64,000 bases of DNA from an uncultured Candidatus Saccharibacteria bacterium (GTDB lineage Bacteria; Patescibacteriota; Minisyncoccia; Phycocordibacterales; UBA9973): NCBI GenBank assembly GCA_964398205.1, contig CAYNLU010000001.1:417-64416 (forward strand). The letters are read 5' to 3'. The notes under the pieces were generated by a model. It did not search any database. It was not told the DNA's origin and saw nothing but the letters and a program-made list of their open reading frames with translations. Shown here one piece after another: positions 1 to 5,651 of the stretch; within the stretch, counting starts at the first letter, position 1; each line of letters starts with the position of its first letter. The translations under genes and the position numbers were made by a program.

Positions 1-8
1 TTTATATT

Positions 9-314
9 TTAAACAATCAAATCATACAATTTATTAATTTTACCCAAAGGTATTAAACACTCAGCTCCTATTTCACGATGTTTTATATTAATTTCTTTTT
101 GTAAGTTAGGTTGTAGTATACCTGTTTCAACATCTTTTAAACCAATAGTATAATATTCCTGGTTTATCTGAAAGATAAAAAAAATTTCTCTTTTTATCTT
201 TTCTTCTGTTAATGTTAAAATAGCCTCTTCTTTATAAATAGTTTCGAGTTTTTGGCACCAAGAAATCCACAAATCTTTTTTGCCTTCTTTAATTTTAAAT
301 AAATTCCCTTTCAT
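9..314 (-). CDS. hypothetical protein (101 aa)
   Basis: Intact ORF from the six-frame track. No motif recognised. Confidence 0.35.
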   Translation of the reverse strand: MKGNLFKIKEGKKDLWISWCQKLETIYKEEAILTLTEEKIKREIFFIFQINQEYYTIGLKDVETGILQPNLQKEINIKHREIGAECLIPLGKINKLYDLIV

Positions 315-364
315 TTTTACTATTTAAAAAGAACCTGTAAATCTCATACAGGTTCTTTTGTTAA

Positions 365-826
365 TTAATCGTCATCACCATCATCAATATCATAAGTACA
401 TACACATACTTTTCTATCCCAAATAGATTCGTCGACTACACCGAACAGTTTCTCCATTATAGGAATAGTTGAAAGTAAATAACTAGGCAGTAAAGCATTT
501 CTTTCCTCTTCGTTTTTGGTAGGAGTATGATGAACATATCCTCCCATAACATTTGAACAGAAATCATGATACGATCTTGTGTGTGAAATATGAGCATGAG
601 CAAAATGATCTACTGGAGCAGACATTGGAAATTTTTTACCTTTATTTAAATAAATCATACAAAGATATTTTTTCCATTCAATTTCTAATAATATAAGGTA
701 AGATTCGGCTAAACCTTCCTTATCTTTAATGTGCCCCCTGACATCACTCATATCGGTACTCATAATTCCGGCAAAGACGTTTTTGTCCATACCAACAGGA
801 CAACTAACTGATAAACAACCATTCAT
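365..826 (-). CDS. hypothetical protein, His/Cys-rich with acidic C-terminal tail (DIDDGDDD)
   Basis: 153-aa ORF. The cluster HFAHAHISHTRSYHDFC suggests metal binding. No family assigned. Confidence 0.4.
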   Translation of the reverse strand: MNGCLSVSCPVGMDKNVFAGIMSTDMSDVRGHIKDKEGLAESYLILLEIEWKKYLCMIYLNKGKKFPMSAPVDHFAHAHISHTRSYHDFCSNVMGGYVHHTPTKNEEERNALLPSYLLSTIPIMEKLFGVVDESIWDRKVCVCTYDIDDGDDD

Positions 827-929
827 TTGTTTAAATATTTAAAAAATAAAATAACAATATTGTTATAAATACTATACAAAATTAAATAACATTTGTAAAT
901 ACATACATATGCACTCAAGTTATATCACA

Positions 930-1898
930 TTAAATAAAAAGTAATAAAGAACCTAGGAGCATAAGTATCATTGAAGCAAATTTAATTTTTAAATTTTCTT
1001 TTGAAATATCTTCTTTGATTAATTTTGGCAAAAATTTCGTACCTAAAATAGCGAGGATTAGAACTATTGCTGGCTGGAAACTTCCTACGAGATAAACTAA
1101 AGTTACCGGCGCGAGTAATAAAGCATAATTTGTAAGCAAGTTGCCTGCTATAGTTAAAAACTCACTAAAAATATTTAAAATAAAAATTTTCTTGCCTCCT
1201 GTTTTATTCATAAAATGAAATTCATTGCGATATTTAGGAACAAAAAGATAAATTAAAATCCCAGTAACTCCAAGCCCAATATATTCCCAAAAAGAAGCAA
1301 TCCAGAAATTATTATCTATAGTTACATATTTAAAAATTACTCCTGACACTGCTACTAATAAACAAGCAATAGACATATATAAAACTGGTTTATGCTTTAA
1401 TTTTCTACTTCCTTTTTGCCAATCTATAGATACTAAAGCAACTCCAATCAGTATTATTAAAGAACCTAATAATTCTTTATTAGACAAAGTCTCGCCCAAG
1501 AAAAAATATCCTAAGATATAACCGAAAATAGGTACAGTTAAAAACCAAGGAACAACATTCGAAACCTCTTCTATCTCAAGAGCAAAAAGATAAAACACAA
1601 TCCAAACAATAGTAAGTATTCCAGTAATAAAGAGTAATACCTTATCCCCTAAAGAAATTGAAAATAAATTTGGAGTAAATAAAAATATTAAAACTGCAAT
1701 CAAAATTCCTATTAAACTAGAAAATAAAACTAAACCGCCCGAGCTACGTTCACGTTCTTTCGTAGAAAAATTCGCAACTAAATAGTTATCAAAAATATTT
1801 ACAATTGCCCACAAAAAAGGAGCTCCTAAAGCAATTAAAAACCAATTCATATAAATATGATAACATAAATAAAAATTAGACTCTATTTTAATGTCCAC
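930..1898 (-). CDS. DMT/EamA-family membrane transporter (about 10 TM helices)
   Basis: 322 aa, strongly hydrophobic with repeated TM segments. Two-domain architecture typical of drug/metabolite transporters. Confidence 0.65.
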   Translation of the reverse strand: MDIKIESNFYLCYHIYMNWFLIALGAPFLWAIVNIFDNYLVANFSTKERERSSGGLVLFSSLIGILIAVLIFLFTPNLFSISLGDKVLLFITGILTIVWIVFYLFALEIEEVSNVVPWFLTVPIFGYILGYFFLGETLSNKELLGSLIILIGVALVSIDWQKGSRKLKHKPVLYMSIACLLVAVSGVIFKYVTIDNNFWIASFWEYIGLGVTGILIYLFVPKYRNEFHFMNKTGGKKIFILNIFSEFLTIAGNLLTNYALLLAPVTLVYLVGSFQPAIVLILAILGTKFLPKLIKEDISKENLKIKFASMILMLLGSLLLFI

Positions 1899-2310
1899 TT
1901 ATTCTAGCATTTGCGCGAACCTTTTTCGAGAGCCAAACGGACTAATCGCATACCGTTGCGCTTGCGCGCCTCTGTGCGAAGCACAGAGATTTCCTAAAGG
2001 GAAAGTACGGATATGCGAATACACTGCGGACTCGGTTTTGCGAAGCTATCTTTTCTGGGAAAAGGATTCGCAAAACCTCGGCTGTTTTCCGCGCGCAAGG
2101 AAGGGTCTGGGAGGGAATGCGCGCGGGATTCTCGGCGGGATTTTTGGGGCGGGTAAAAACGAAAAGCAAAACTCAAAACAGAAAATCAAATTGATATTGT
2201 CTCGGCTATTTCTTTTGCTATTGGTTGTCCGAGTCTAAAGGAGATAAGCCCTCGGTATCCGCGTAAGTACACGCGGATACTTTGCCCACCCATGCGCGCA
2301 TGAATTTTGC
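1895..2310 (+). ncRNA. unclassified GC-rich, highly structured element (candidate structured ncRNA; class unknown)
   Basis: About 55% GC and G-rich on the plus strand, inside a roughly 30% GC genome. Several perfect nested helices are visible: CUCUGUGC-GAA-GCACAGAG (1969-1987); GGUUUUGCG...CGCAAAACC enclosing CUUUUC-UGG-GAAAAG (2034-2077); CCGCGCGCA...UGCGCGCGG (2090-2126); AUCCGCGU-AAGUAC-ACGCGGAU (2259-2280). Overlapping antisense ORFs without protein-like features argue against coding. Confidence 0.35.
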
Positions 2311-2313
2311 TCC

Positions 2314-3414
2314 CTAATTAATCCAAATATTTATATCTATTTTTTCTCCAACAATTTGCTCAAAATAAGTTGCTCCTATAGCAATACCAACAGAGGTTAG
2401 ATTTAAATGCTTTAAATTTTTATCCCAAATTTCAAAAACCTTTTTCCCAACATTAATCTTATCTTCAATTTCTTTTCTTACCTCGCCAGTAGATTTAATT
2501 TTATTTTCAAACAGACTCTTTATTTTAGTTCCAATATCAGGTTCAATGGATTCTTTTTTAATGTAATCCTCAATAGAATTTTTATTTCTAAATCGAATAG
2601 ACAAGTTTTCCTTTTCATTTTTACCAATAACTTTTACCTTTAGATCTTCGGGGAGTGAAAGATTATTAATTTCTTCTTCACTTATATCGTTCTGAAACAA
2701 AAAGGAATATTCTTGCTGATAAATCTGATCAAGATTCCATGATCCTATCCCAATACTTCCACACCCCGCATATTCTATATGCTGAAATTGAGAATCTGTA
2801 TTATTAAAATCTATAAAAGGTGATATATTTTTTGCGAAGTAGTTTTTAAATGCGTCCCAAGAGTTGATGTTTAAAAAAGAGACATATCTTAATAAGTAAC
2901 AAAGTGTAATAATTTTTAATTGATCAGAAGTAATTTTACCAATTGTCGTTATTGCCTCATTGTAAACAATATTCTTTAATTCTTCTTTTCCACTTTGGTC
3001 GTTCTTTATGCGGTTTATAACTAAGTCTGCTAATACTGCTCTAAGGTCAGGATTTTGTTTGCGTCCGCTAATAGTCGCAGCTTCCAATAAAGCCATTTGC
3101 GTATCAGGTTCTTTTAGTTTTAAAATTTCTTCTTCTGGCAGAGTAGCTAACTTCTCTTTAAGAATATTTCCAAACTCTTGAGTCCTAAGTCGGTATTCAT
3201 CCTTCGCTTCATTTTTAAAAACCATTAATTTTTGATCAATAACAGACTCGACTAAATCTTTTGCTTCTGTATATGAAAGCCCTTGATAAATAACCGCTTT
3301 ATCAATTTTATTTTCTATCTCCTGGTTAATTTTTACTGTCGGCGAATTAACCTTTTCAGATTTTACACTGATGTTAAATTTGCCAATTATATTTTTAAAC
3401 CAAGATAAATCCAT
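2314..3414 (-). CDS. hypothetical protein (366 aa), third gene of a three-gene operon
   Basis: Intact ORF separated from the upstream gene by a 3-nt gap. No confident family. Confidence 0.55.
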   Translation of the reverse strand: MDLSWFKNIIGKFNISVKSEKVNSPTVKINQEIENKIDKAVIYQGLSYTEAKDLVESVIDQKLMVFKNEAKDEYRLRTQEFGNILKEKLATLPEEEILKLKEPDTQMALLEAATISGRKQNPDLRAVLADLVINRIKNDQSGKEELKNIVYNEAITTIGKITSDQLKIITLCYLLRYVSFLNINSWDAFKNYFAKNISPFIDFNNTDSQFQHIEYAGCGSIGIGSWNLDQIYQQEYSFLFQNDISEEEINNLSLPEDLKVKVIGKNEKENLSIRFRNKNSIEDYIKKESIEPDIGTKIKSLFENKIKSTGEVRKEIEDKINVGKKVFEIWDKNLKHLNLTSVGIAIGATYFEQIVGEKIDINIWIN

Positions 3415-3417
3415 AAA

Positions 3418-4284
3418 TTAAAAGTAAATTTTATTTATTTGATGACCAGTATGTTCATTATCGTAATTTTTGACAATAATTCTATCTCCAGTTTTTTCTA
3501 TTTGAATATTAGACTTGTAATCAGAGTCAATATTTTTATTAAAATCAAACATACTAAACTCATGGACATTAAATTCTAACTTGGGTTCAAATGAAACAAG
3601 TTCAGCTGGAAAATCTATAGAATTTACTTTTTCAATGTCATTAAAAGTTTCCCTCACATCTAAATCTCTTCTTTGTTTTTCTCTTTGATTAAAAAACATA
3701 ATAAGTTCTTGTGGCTTTTGTAAAACTGCCTTAAGACCATCTGTCATCAAGAGATCTTTTTTAAGTCGTAGAGATAAACCTGATTTACTTACATAATAAA
3801 TTGAATCTCTGCCTTGTCCAGCATAGGAATTAAGTTGGTCATAATATTCCGATTCTGAAGCATCACCTTTAAAGTTAAAATCGTGATACTGACTAAGTAC
3901 AAAGGCATGATTAGTGCTAAACTTATGTTTCCATATTTCTTTACTTTCAATATATTGGACTAATTTCTCAAACTGGTCATTAGTAAAATCAATGTCCCCC
4001 TGATTGGCTTCATATTGTGATTCTCTTTTTATCTTCCGCCTTAAGGTAGAAGCATCATCCTCAGACAAAGAATTGATGGTCTTGTTTAACTCTTCAGTTT
4101 TCATTTCTTCAATCTCGGTGGCTGTAAAATTATGATTTGAACGTGCATAAGTACTGTCATCAGAGTAACTTTCTTTTGAAAGTTGTTCCAAAAATGAAAA
4201 AATATCTTGAACAGACCGAAGTTCTTCTTTTGGAATTTCAATATGCTTTTCAAAATTATTAAATTGTGGTTTTTCTAAATTCAT
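3418..4284 (-). CDS. hypothetical protein (288 aa), second gene of a three-gene operon
   Basis: Intact ORF, 4-nt gap to the upstream gene. Acidic and polar, no known motif. Confidence 0.55.
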   Translation of the reverse strand: MNLEKPQFNNFEKHIEIPKEELRSVQDIFSFLEQLSKESYSDDSTYARSNHNFTATEIEEMKTEELNKTINSLSEDDASTLRRKIKRESQYEANQGDIDFTNDQFEKLVQYIESKEIWKHKFSTNHAFVLSQYHDFNFKGDASESEYYDQLNSYAGQGRDSIYYVSKSGLSLRLKKDLLMTDGLKAVLQKPQELIMFFNQREKQRRDLDVRETFNDIEKVNSIDFPAELVSFEPKLEFNVHEFSMFDFNKNIDSDYKSNIQIEKTGDRIIVKNYDNEHTGHQINKIYF

Positions 4285-4288
4285 AAAA

Positions 4289-4882
4289 TTATTTTTTATT
4301 CTTTCCCAAATATAAATTTCTTTCTTTCAATACAAAATTCCAATAATCGGGAATGAACTCTTGATTGCATCTTGATAGGAAATCCCCGAAAAACTTTCTC
4401 GATTCAGGAGTATCTTTTGCTAAATATTCTTTTAATTTTTCTTCACCTAGTTCGTCAAATATCTTATTATCTTTCAAAACTCTAAGCGCCGTTGAAACGT
4501 GAACCCCAGGACGAAGATCGGTGGTAAATTTATTCTCTTTTCTCCCGTTAAAAGCTAATTGCCAAATATAATGTCTAAATTCTTTTCCGTCTAACTTTCG
4601 CATCCAGTCGTAAGTATAAAAAGCTTTTTGTCCTTCTTTTAAATTAGTACGATCTAAGTTTGCGTATTCACCGCGATCGTCTGTAGAGCTTAATACTATT
4701 TTTTGATTACTTTGATCAAAATGATAGTCAGATTGCCCACAAAGATCTCCGTGCCCAGTTAAATTGCCATTTATCGATACAACGTATTGAAAATTAGGAT
4801 TTGTTTTAACAAGATCAAGCATCTTTTTAACCCTTTCCTTTTCTAAATTATTTTCATTATTTTCCGGTAATTTTTCGTACAT
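4289..4882 (-). CDS. hypothetical protein (197 aa), first gene of a three-gene operon
   Basis: Intact ORF directly downstream of tRNA-Ile. Motifs GHGDLCGQSDYHFD and STDDRGEY suggest an enzymatic fold, but none could be assigned. Confidence 0.55.
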   Translation of the reverse strand: MYEKLPENNENNLEKERVKKMLDLVKTNPNFQYVVSINGNLTGHGDLCGQSDYHFDQSNQKIVLSSTDDRGEYANLDRTNLKEGQKAFYTYDWMRKLDGKEFRHYIWQLAFNGRKENKFTTDLRPGVHVSTALRVLKDNKIFDELGEEKLKEYLAKDTPESRKFFGDFLSRCNQEFIPDYWNFVLKERNLYLGKNKK

Positions 4883-4919
4883 AAAAAAAATTAATAATTT
4901 TTAATAAAATTAAACAATG

Positions 4920-4993
4920 TCCGCCCTCTTGGACTCGAACCAAGGACACTTCGAGTATAAGTCGAATGCTCTACCAACTGAGCTAAGGGCGGA
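4920..4993 (-). tRNA. tRNA-Ile (anticodon UAU)
   Basis: Full cloverleaf on the minus strand: acceptor CCGCCCU/AGGGCGG, D-arm GCUC-AGUUGGUA-GAGC, anticodon arm UUCGA-CUUAUAC-UCGAA, 5-nt variable loop, T-arm CUUGG-UUCGAGU-CCAAG, discriminator A. CCA is not encoded. Confidence 0.8.
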
Positions 4994-5651
4994 TTTTAGA
5001 AATTACTGATAAATATTTTAAGGAAGTTAAAATATATTCATATAAATCTCTATTATTAAATATTACGGAGCAAGTTCCTTTACCGAAACCTTTTTGATAA
5101 TTCAAGCTTTTTTTAATACTTTTCTTAACATAAGGCTTATAAAACTGCTCTTTATCTATTCTAAGCTCTTTTTGCCAAAAATCAATAGCTTCATCAATAT
5201 TCATGTCTTGATATAGATGAAGTTTAATTCTTAGGTGAGATTTTTTAACTTTAAATAATTCTAGCCATCTAAGAAAAAATTTAATCATGTTTGGATTGGT
5301 ATTCGTAAATTCAACAGAACAATTTTTAGTTTTTGTCCCTTCTCCCCAATACAAAAATAAACCTGATATGAATAAATCTCTTTTTGATAATTTTCCTATA
5401 TCTTTTGAAACTTTCTTAAAAACTTGATCCAATCTAGCTTCTTTTTTAGCTTTCATGGTATTCCTAAATCTTTCAATTCTAATAGGATTATCATCTCTCA
5501 ATATTTTAATACGTGCATCAGACAAGGGCATATCAGAAAGCCAATTACTCAAAGTACTTTTACTTATTTTTAGACTATCTTTTATTTGACTATAACTCAT
5601 ACCTTTCTTACGCATGGTTATAGCTTTTTGTTTATCTAATTTTCTTGCCAT
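4983..5651 (-). CDS. HTH-domain protein with a LAGLIDADG-like motif (putative homing-endonuclease-like DNA-binding protein)
   Basis: N-terminal resolvase/Hin-like HTH (GMSYSQIKDSLKISKSTLSNWL). Central LFISGLFLYWGEGTK resembles the LAGLIDADG motif. The 3' end overlaps the tRNA by about 10 nt. Confidence 0.5.
   Translation of the reverse strand: MARKLDKQKAITMRKKGMSYSQIKDSLKISKSTLSNWLSDMPLSDARIKILRDDNPIRIERFRNTMKAKKEARLDQVFKKVSKDIGKLSKRDLFISGLFLYWGEGTKTKNCSVEFTNTNPNMIKFFLRWLELFKVKKSHLRIKLHLYQDMNIDEAIDFWQKELRIDKEQFYKPYVKKSIKKSLNYQKGFGKGTCSVIFNNRDLYEYILTSLKYLSVISKIRP

Follow-up and report, generated by a model that had tools for sequence, protein, structure and literature searches.

The stretch of DNA analysed here (the window, 64,000 nt) comes from a contig of an uncultured Candidatus Saccharibacteria bacterium, and near its left end it carries a GC-rich, strongly folded element that is bounded by two genes of the − strand, an EamA gene (930-1850) and a gene encoding a protein of 366 amino acid residues (2314-3414). 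The GC content was 49.3% at 1895-2310 and 52.7% in the inner part (1898-2157), against 32.7% for the whole window; the enrichment described in an earlier note on this DNA is real, although the value given there (about 55% in a genome of about 30%) was slightly high. The + strand, which had been described as G-rich, was found to be so in 1898-2157 only (skew +0.15), whereas in 2158-2313 it is the − strand that is G-rich (skew −0.09). Four perfect helices had been proposed, and all of them were present, with coordinates right to within 1-4 nt: CTCTGTGC-GAA-GCACAGAG at 1970-1988, as read from the sequence; GGTTTTGCGAA and TTCGCAAAACC at 2034-2044 and 2067-2077, with a small hairpin inside; CCGCGCGCA and TGCGCGCGG at 2089-2097 and 2118-2126, with a purine-rich loop between the arms; and GTATCCGCGT and ACGCGGATAC at 2255-2264 and 2271-2280. 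The minimum free energy was −153.7 kcal/mol for the + strand (z = −5.1) and −142.1 kcal/mol for the − strand (z = −4.1), and in neither case did any of 100 shuffled sequences fold as well. Open reading frames (ORFs) overlap the GC-rich region on both strands, and no Pfam match was obtained for the overlapping ORF of 115 amino acid residues. The earlier description of a real, structured and non-coding element holds.

As judged from its features, the sequence 1899-2314 is not the single 420-nt RNA that had been envisaged, and consists of two modules with converging G-rich strands, designated element E (+) and module A (−). Their parts are as follows.

1899-2155, + (G-rich strand): element E, a repeat unit of about 257 nt
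1899-1945, −: outer end of E, which resembles the inverted 3' third of a tRNA and contains an outward sigma-70-like promoter site
1929-1901, −: the sigma-70-like site with an extended −10, consisting of the −35 sequence TCGAAA (1929-1924), a 17-nt spacer and TGn-TAGAAT (1906-1901); it faces the EamA start at 1850
1946-2018, +: predicted four-way junction (from the fold), a stem (1946-1956 with 2007-2018) closing three hairpins
2028-2083, +: hairpin C, with the stem 2034-2044 / 2067-2077 and the family-conserved loop ..TTTTCTGGG(G)AAAGGATT
2089-2126, +: hairpin B, a 9-bp stem with the 21-nt G-rich loop that is the signature of the family (AGGAAGGGTCTGGGAGGGAAT in the window)
2127-2155, +: inner tip of E, a T-run followed by GGGGCGGGTA
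2156-2314, − (G-rich strand): module A, which opens with GGGAG (2314-2310)
about 2305-2264, −: hairpin of module A with the loop GCATGGGTGGGCAAA
2255-2280, −: 10-bp hairpin in module A, after which a U-rich tail runs into the tip of E

The four-way junction is a subfamily-specific insert common to the window and the loci L019, L057 and L092. The E copy in L019 (1160-1417) lies in a different gene context and is 83% identical to the window copy over window positions 1901-2083; when the 8-bp GAA hairpin was compared between the two, three stacked pairs differed, all of them compensated (CTCTGTGC/GCACAGAG in the window, CTCCACGC/GCGTGGAG in L019). In the main helix of hairpin C, 9 of the 12 pairs change on both sides among 28 copies, and the arm variants include GTTTTGCGAA, CGGGGCAAAC, GCAGGGCGAA and GCAAAACGGAAAA. 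At least eight fully compensated stem variants were found in hairpin B beneath the conserved loop. The stems of module A likewise covary (TGCGC/GCGCA, TTGTGC/GCACAA, GTTGCCC/GGGCAAC, GTTGTGT/ACACAAC) around the conserved loop GCGAACGGGAGGGTGGGTCAA, and its closing stem is weak in the window. Hairpins B and C and module A are built alike, each with a G-rich loop of about 21-25 nt that is conserved and a stem that is variable yet complementary. Conservation of module A starts sharply at GGGAG, which has 1 nt in common with the TAG stop codon of the 366-aa gene, and the sequence on the cargo side is unrelated. A small ORF, suggested by GGGAG with an ATG 7-8 nt later in the manner of a ribosome site and start, was rejected: the frames differ among the copies and several have no ATG. 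A G-quadruplex and a loop-loop kissing interaction between module A and hairpin B were also discarded, since by eye neither the necessary G-runs nor the necessary complementarity is conserved, the window included.

To define the family, metagenome contigs were scanned for the loop motif of hairpin B, which returned at least 120 stretches, and 80 metagenome loci around E were examined among the matches listed. A full-length MAFFT alignment of 64 copies was unusable because their 5' parts are mosaic, and the covariance model (R1) was therefore limited to hairpins C and B; it was built from 28 diverse copies with the structure supplied by hand, and it was run over a search space of 550 kb. R1 gave 137 matches, of which 96 were strong and lay in 70 loci. 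One match fell in the window, where the core of E (2028-2130) scored 100.9 bits (E = 1.6e-21); the element is present once in the 64 kb. The database labels of the E-bearing loci are mostly those of the candidate phyla radiation (CPR)/Patescibacteria, the genes that adjoin E in other loci are unrelated to one another, and contigs break inside E.

The copies follow a strict orientation. Among the 26 loci with two copies, 24 held a convergent inverted pair (1.5-7.8 kb apart), one a divergent pair and one a tandem pair. Paired copies are 91-100% identical up to a sharp tip about 45-60 nt past hairpin B, and identity ends exactly after the tip motif (the T-run, then ..TTTTGGCG..GGCGGGCTA), beyond which lies unrelated cargo that differs from locus to locus. 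The usual layout of the related loci is a tRNA gene, often a unit of about 1.75 kb with a large serine recombinase (LSR), E, cargo and an inverted E, with the tips of hairpin B facing the cargo. The cargo of the relatives includes, by labels read from translations, a LexA-like methyltransferase, phosphoenolpyruvate-utilising enzymes and operons like those of type I restriction-modification, and many cassettes open with a small XRE-type helix-turn-helix (HTH) gene. This gene lies 60-100 nt inside the E tip and is read away from E in L046, L053, L067, L078, L093, L094, L101, L106, L110 and others; it is preceded by an AT-rich region with a TATAAT-like palindrome and, to go by its label and position, may be the regulator of the cassette. 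Module A was found by nhmmer in 19 copies at 17 loci, 11 of which lie 64-481 nt from an E copy, convergent with it and inside the tip. Several pairs have cassette ends that are unlike: a type b hairpin (ATTTTGC...GCAAAAT GCGCC), in most cases followed by module A, stands at one of them, and a type a hairpin (GCCA..GAAA..TGGC GCGCC) at the opposite one. In a type 2 subfamily of E the termini are kept and the loop of hairpin B stands on the other strand. At L077 (4397-4498), hairpin B combines the left arm of one stem type (CCCGCCCGC) with the right arm of another (CCGCGCGGG) and has two mismatches. The other stem type is also present in this contig, at a distance of 3 kb, and this suggests that the copies have undergone short-patch conversion.

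The association with recombinases and tRNA genes was recurrent. An LSR (Resolvase, Recombinase and Zn_ribbon_recom domains) lies beside E in 21 of the 80 metagenome loci, with its start usually towards E. In L032, L065, L083, L070 and L097 the recombinase ORF reaches a tRNA gene, whose 3' end it either overlaps or directly adjoins, and in L047 and L058 it ends about 70-130 nt from such a 3' end. The minimal unit spans about 1.5-2 kb and consists of a single recombinase gene with an inverted repeat of about 120-200 nt on either side; units of this kind were delimited in L065 (405-2015), L032, L083, L073 (3060-4530) and L047 (676-2725); within them, the recombinase ORF continues through the inverted repeat into the tRNA gene. 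In L065, L032, L083 and L073 the unit sits exactly between ..CCA and TGG.. of inverted tRNA or tRNA-like 3' ends. The junctions in L065, for example, read tRNA-Ser..CCGCCA/ATTTTCAC..rec..GTGAAAAT/TGGCGG..E (slashes mark the borders of the unit), and in L073 the unit stands between the outer ends of two E copies. A spacer of 30-35 nt, composed of an A-run, a hairpin and a T-run, occupies in L048, L019 and L098 the position that the LSR unit holds elsewhere, and these loci are read as putative empty sites; there the two tRNA-like halves are 30-35 nt apart, in contrast to the contiguous sites of 40-50 bp that are known. The outer 45 nt of E resemble an inverted 3' third of a tRNA (consensus GGTTCGAGCTTGGTACAATAAATACACCA, compared with the tRNA-Ile end GGTTCGAGTCCAGGTACGCGCACCA of L048), and in related loci this tRNA-like end runs in the same direction as the tRNA. 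At L047 (2719-2910), the 3' end of tRNA-Ser (GCGGAGAGAGGGAGATTCG) is directly repeated about 165 nt upstream of the tRNA, by the tip of the element and with GC-rich filler between, which looks like the trace of successive integrations at one tRNA.

The genes around the element in the window are the following.

4919-4992, −: tRNA-Ile, anticodon TAT; the cargo starts 36 nt past its 3' end
4289-4882, −: 197-aa gene, cargo ORF
3418-4284, −: 288-aa gene, cargo ORF
2314-3414, −: 366-aa gene of the LPO_1073/Vpar_1526 family (PF28206), cargo
930-1850, −: EamA-family transporter gene (Pfam EamA, E = 9.8e-18), just outside E and not part of the repeat family

Along the − strand, tRNA-Ile (4992-4919) is followed by three cargo genes with the Vpar_1526 member last, then by module A, inverted E and EamA, an order that corresponds to the distal half of the family architecture. 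The tRNA-Ile is likely the proximal boundary of the island; a tRNA-Ser, -Gly, -Val, -Ala, -Ile or -Leu gene takes the equivalent position relative to E and cargo in related loci. The named relatives of the 366-aa protein come from Patescibacteria, and some of them also carry PF14337, which we take to be Abi_alpha. The element is 100% identical in all ten contigs with an identical 366-aa protein, and these copies are therefore uninformative on covariation. When relatives of the protein at 93%, 95%, 76% and 73% identity were considered, the upstream genes were different and a GC-rich stretch (0.56-0.67) followed right after the stop; this stretch is module A and begins GGGAG..GCGCGC..GGGTGGG. 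More distant relatives (L030, L021, L023, L027) abut a different GC-rich element that carries the purine-rich loop of the window on either strand, and in L019 an E copy stands upstream of the three-gene operon. Altogether, Vpar_1526-family genes end flush with module A or an E tip in the window (2314) and in L011, L012, L019, L020, L024, L021, L023, L027 and L030, with the TAG stop overlapping the repeat in L030 and the window, and the genes upstream of Vpar_1526 vary among the loci. Since module A or an E tip is kept behind the 366-aa homologs in these differing contexts, the element travels with the cassette and not with EamA. A Vpar_1526-family gene was present in none of the 80 loci obtained through the loop motif, among the matches listed. 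In L002 (5442-8224), from the same species, the cassette, the element and EamA are identical, and an acetyltransferase and an ADK/GTP-cyclohydrolase fusion lie beyond EamA; UCP032817-like and DUF6176 genes stand there in the window (1-930). The flank of the island thus also varies between strains.

When 1700-2500 was scanned for promoters, TCGAAA-17-TGnTAGAAT was the only site, and no terminator was found in the same interval. A homologous site, TTGAAA-N16-18-TGnTAnAAT-N7-CACCA, was read from the scan table in about 20 distinct E copies; among 62 E regions, an outward site was predicted in 29 and an inward one in 5, compared with 16.5 in shuffles. As the promoter-like site lies inside the outer end of E, EamA may be expressed from the end of a mobile element.

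We favour, with moderate confidence, the explanation that a small cassette-type island beside tRNA-Ile has its complete distal end module at 1899-2314, and that this module works mainly as DNA and not as an RNA gene. The gene order of the window matches the distal half of the family layout, but there is neither an LSR nor a second E, and the terminal CACCA is missing from the window E, where the sequence reads GTGGAC; this points to the end module of an island that is probably immobilised. The window E is a solo copy, and its remaining activity, to judge from the predicted promoter, is probably that of driving EamA. E would provide the second, inverted half of a palindromic site for the recombinase, and site-specific or homologous recombination at the inverted E pair around the cargo could turn the cargo round, excise it or exchange it between strains. 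The hairpins, with their fixed G-rich loops and free stems, would serve as structure-specific recognition modules for a putative protein, and the outward promoter-like site would transcribe whatever adjoins E on the outside.

Several observations weigh against this explanation. No match was obtained when six recombinases of the family were used in tblastn against the 64-kb window, and R1 detected no second E there. The window E shares only GGTTCG with the 3' end of its own tRNA-Ile, and the TGGTG end is lost; no longer direct repeat of that 3' end was seen within the element. Among about 110 loci, no pair of filled and empty sites, no target duplication, no circular junction and no inversion variant was found, and we infer mobility from the architecture alone. 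Known LSR attachment sites are of about 40-50 bp and need no arms of 250 nt, according to one source (PMC12286644). A dimer that binds double-stranded DNA would be expected to favour the opposite of what is seen here, where the loop is conserved and the stems are free. The right-hand E of L096 (7927-8174) has no inverted tRNA-like end; a full tRNA-Leu gene of the same direction is fused to it by its 3' end, so that E could be co-transcribed with that tRNA.

Whether the hairpins are selected as RNA or as DNA bears on the choice between this explanation and the first alternative, in which E and module A each encode a structured non-coding RNA of about 250 nt (+) and 150 nt (−), respectively; the two would be convergent, belong to a new class and be borne by the cassette. 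Such RNAs would act, for example, as regulators, as decoys exposing GGAGG-like loops, or as cofactors of the recombinase or of cargo proteins. In the 28-copy alignment, 90.9% of the cells were paired, compared with 73.3% in shuffles (0 of 500 reached the observed value), both sides changed in 15 of 23 pairs, and the covariation score was 0.42, against at most 0.18 with slid partners, a score that again none of the 500 shuffles reached. Pairing and covariation beyond shuffles speak for RNAs, as do loops that are conserved and purine-rich above variable stems, and the enrichment in GC, with GC-rich stems, in an AT-rich genome; the GC-rich stems, the covariation and the loops would equally be expected of a structured RNA. 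A strong fold excess on both strands, the T-run at the tip after hairpin B, type 1 E copies that are co-directional with the upstream tRNA (one of them being the tRNA-Leu fusion), and the frequent position of module A behind a stop codon on the gene's own strand are further points for the RNA alternative.

The kinds of base pair, however, do not bear the mark of RNA. When the stems of 67 distinct copies were counted (1460 pairs), 1346 pairs were Watson-Crick, 20 were G·T and 10 were A·C; 14 of the 20 G·T pairs sit at one terminal pair, and without it G·T is no commoner than A·C (6 against 10). For hairpin B alone (66 distinct copies, 563 Watson-Crick pairs and 4 others) G·T outnumbers A·C by 20 to 7, a ratio to which the same terminal pair contributes. 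In addition, the loop of hairpin B is found on the opposite strand in type 2 copies. Opposed G-rich strands, which run towards each other at the tip, are a further sign from E and module A against selection on one RNA strand. A role at the DNA level is favoured by the lack of a G·U excess combined with this swap of the loop between subfamilies; the strand bias in loop composition of small hairpins (40 purine-rich, 24 pyrimidine-rich) was not decisive. The patterns of stems and loops fit palindromes that would be maintained as DNA, through selection for a hairpin or cruciform or through template-switch correction of one arm. Transcription signals are also adverse to the RNA alternative: the G-rich strand of E begins right after terminator-like hairpins with no conserved promoter ahead of it, the sole conserved promoter-like site points the opposite way, there is neither a terminator in 1700-2500 nor a match to an Rfam family, and in several loci module A and the gene nearest to it are divergently oriented. 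We therefore consider RNA genes possible but unlikely. The earlier suggestion of an RNA component of the adjacent cassette is borne out in that the element goes with the cassette, although in our reading its role is mainly that of DNA.

A second alternative holds that E is a selfish element like a miniature inverted-repeat transposable element (MITE), comparable to BOX, Correia or REPIN, which inserts near gene ends and tRNA genes and whose association with recombinase and cargo is incidental. The many diverged copies with a modular, mosaic make-up, the short similar motifs at both termini (GAATTTCGCC.. and ..TTTTGGCG, by eye), the outward promoter-like site that many such elements carry, and the contigs that break inside the element, as a repeat would cause, are what it would lead one to expect. 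Independent insertion would, however, yield the four orientations equally, whereas the convergent one was almost the only one seen, and the cassette ends differ in a fixed way, with module A and the type b hairpin at one and the type a hairpin at the other. Nor was a target-site duplication or a filled/empty pair found in the same set of about 110 loci, there is one E copy in 64 kb, and no recurrent transposase lies nearby other than the serine recombinase. The termini of E, compared by eye, show weak similarity over 8-13 nt only, and not the terminal inverted repeat of MITEs or REP sequences. This alternative was accordingly judged improbable.

A more far-reaching version of the island explanation can be given only a similarly low probability: E and module A would be the recognition sites of an LSR-run, integron-like cassette exchange in CPR bacteria, in which the hairpins, as extruded DNA or as RNA, are read structure-specifically and the inverted mimic of a tRNA end builds the landing site. 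If true, a serine recombinase would for the first time be seen to act under the direction of structure or with the help of RNA.

That the region is a cis-regulatory, riboswitch-like 5' untranslated leader of EamA, read on the − strand, was considered highly improbable: its place immediately ahead of EamA, on the same strand, and the good fold of that strand would suit a leader, but E and module A copies adjoin genes of unrelated kinds, EamA is a neighbour of E in no other locus of the protein clustering, the predicted promoter at the EamA-proximal edge leaves nearly all of the structure upstream of the transcript start, and no riboswitch family in Rfam matches.

Known RNA classes were searched for with Rfam 15. 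At the gathering score, only the transfer-messenger RNA and two tRNAs were detected in the whole window, and 18 related loci yielded tRNAs only; at E ≤ 10, the best local matches in 1750-2450 were of 14-17 bits, with thresholds of 39-86, and nothing exceeded 17 bits. RNase P models matched neither 1750-2450 at E ≤ 10 nor any part of the window at the gathering score, so that RNase P RNA, one of the candidates of the earlier note, finds no support; neither does a riboswitch, a ribozyme or another catalogued large RNA, for which the window and the 18 related loci were equally negative. RNase P RNA is moreover a single-copy RNA, and L019 has two homologous copies of the element within 5 kb while 24 loci have inverted pairs, an arrangement that housekeeping RNAs do not show. 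No similarity to phage and plasmid records was found by blastn of the region, and two motif scans of viral contigs gave no match. Scarcely any credence can thus be given to a known large RNA (RNase P, a group I/II intron or the OLE/GOLLD/ROOL type) too divergent to score, or to a decayed protein-coding fragment from a GC-rich donor: a GGGAAAGTACGG stretch resembling the RNase P motif named earlier, a faint hit to a group I intron (15 bits, where the gathering score is 50; E = 0.34) and the ORFs on both strands are outweighed by these negative searches, by the 115-aa ORF with no Pfam match, and by the conserved DNA motif lying in different reading frames among the copies when translations were compared. 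The earlier note had named three findings that would speak against a structured RNA, namely no Rfam match, no covariation and a coding remnant; the first was obtained, yet homologous copies do covary and a coding remnant is contradicted.

Each known system shares one or two features with the E family, which fails the defining features of all of them. Integron attC sites occur once per cassette in direct orientation, and it is as single-stranded DNA that they are recognised by the tyrosine integrase IntI. They resemble E in being cassette-associated and in conserving a folded structure while the stem sequence varies; E differs in having two inverted copies per cassette, conserved loops and, as the only recurrent recombinase, a serine recombinase in place of IntI. 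Staphylococcal cassette chromosome (SCC) elements use LSRs and are lined up as cassettes at the 3' end of one conserved gene; some have no recombinase of their own and are served from elsewhere, and restriction-modification cargo is frequent, all of which recalls the E family. Unlike it, SCC elements use direct repeats of only about 18 bp at rlmH, and their terminal inverted repeats are short and imperfect; they show neither conserved-loop hairpins nor tRNA mimicry. The pneumococcal BOX, Neisseria Correia and REP/REPIN elements are non-coding, multi-copy, modular and hairpin-rich; they lie at gene ends, sometimes carry outward promoters, and break assemblies. The E family is like them in these respects, but it is larger, obeys an orientation rule (24 of 26 convergent), has asymmetric cassette ends and is associated with serine recombinases and tRNAs, and it has neither a GTAG-type REP head nor a RAYT transposase. 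With RNase P RNA, OLE, GOLLD and ROOL the region has in common a size of several hundred nucleotides, GC enrichment in an AT-rich genome, many helices and stem covariation; it departs from them in having no model match, two modules on opposite strands, inverted pairs, loops that flip strand and no G·U signature.

The closest likeness is to tRNA-linked islands of the Islander/TIGER type, which, like the related loci, have a tRNA at one end with the recombinase beside it, variable and often defence-type cargo, and at the far end a tRNA-3'-like fragment in the same direction as the tRNA; of these, the window has tRNA, cargo and E in that order and no recombinase. The related loci differ from the classical islands in that the LSR forms a minimal recombinase-only unit with terminal inverted repeats of about 130 nt, in the long (250-330 nt) inverted structured repeats that bracket the cargo, and in a second, inverted tRNA-like third beside the recombinase. 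Such islands usually use a tyrosine integrase, according to one source (PMC4383910). Full-text literature on the family, on Vpar_1526, and on serine recombinases or repeats in Patescibacteria was searched, and no description of the E family was found. Hundreds of genomic islands in Patescibacteria were reported in a 2025 survey (PMC12455944), the main text of which does not contain the words recombinase, integrase, tRNA, inverted repeat or hairpin. We rate the E family as a form of mobile-island end repeats and attachment regions that is undescribed in the literature searched.

The genomes of CPR/Patescibacteria are tiny, and little is known about how their accessory genes are acquired and shuffled. 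With the 21-nt loop motif and the covariance model as a signature, one can map where cassettes begin and end in metagenomes and account for breaks in assemblies there. The family also suggests that a minimal serine-recombinase element and a repeat mimicking a tRNA act as partners, which can be tested. As tools for genome engineering, the recombinases may be of interest too, along with their unusually defined sites. For annotation, the case advises caution: strong folding, GC enrichment and even covariation do not alone identify an RNA gene.

Some minor features were also observed. A 222-aa HTH ORF (4983-5651) overlaps the 5' end of tRNA-Ile by 10 nt. In most bacteria AUA is read by a modified CAU tRNA, unlike the UAU anticodon of the tRNA-Ile in the window. 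At L029 (about 5140-5500), an IS200/IS605-type TnpA, recognised by eye from its translation, is found downstream of a Vpar_1526 homolog lacking any GC-rich element.

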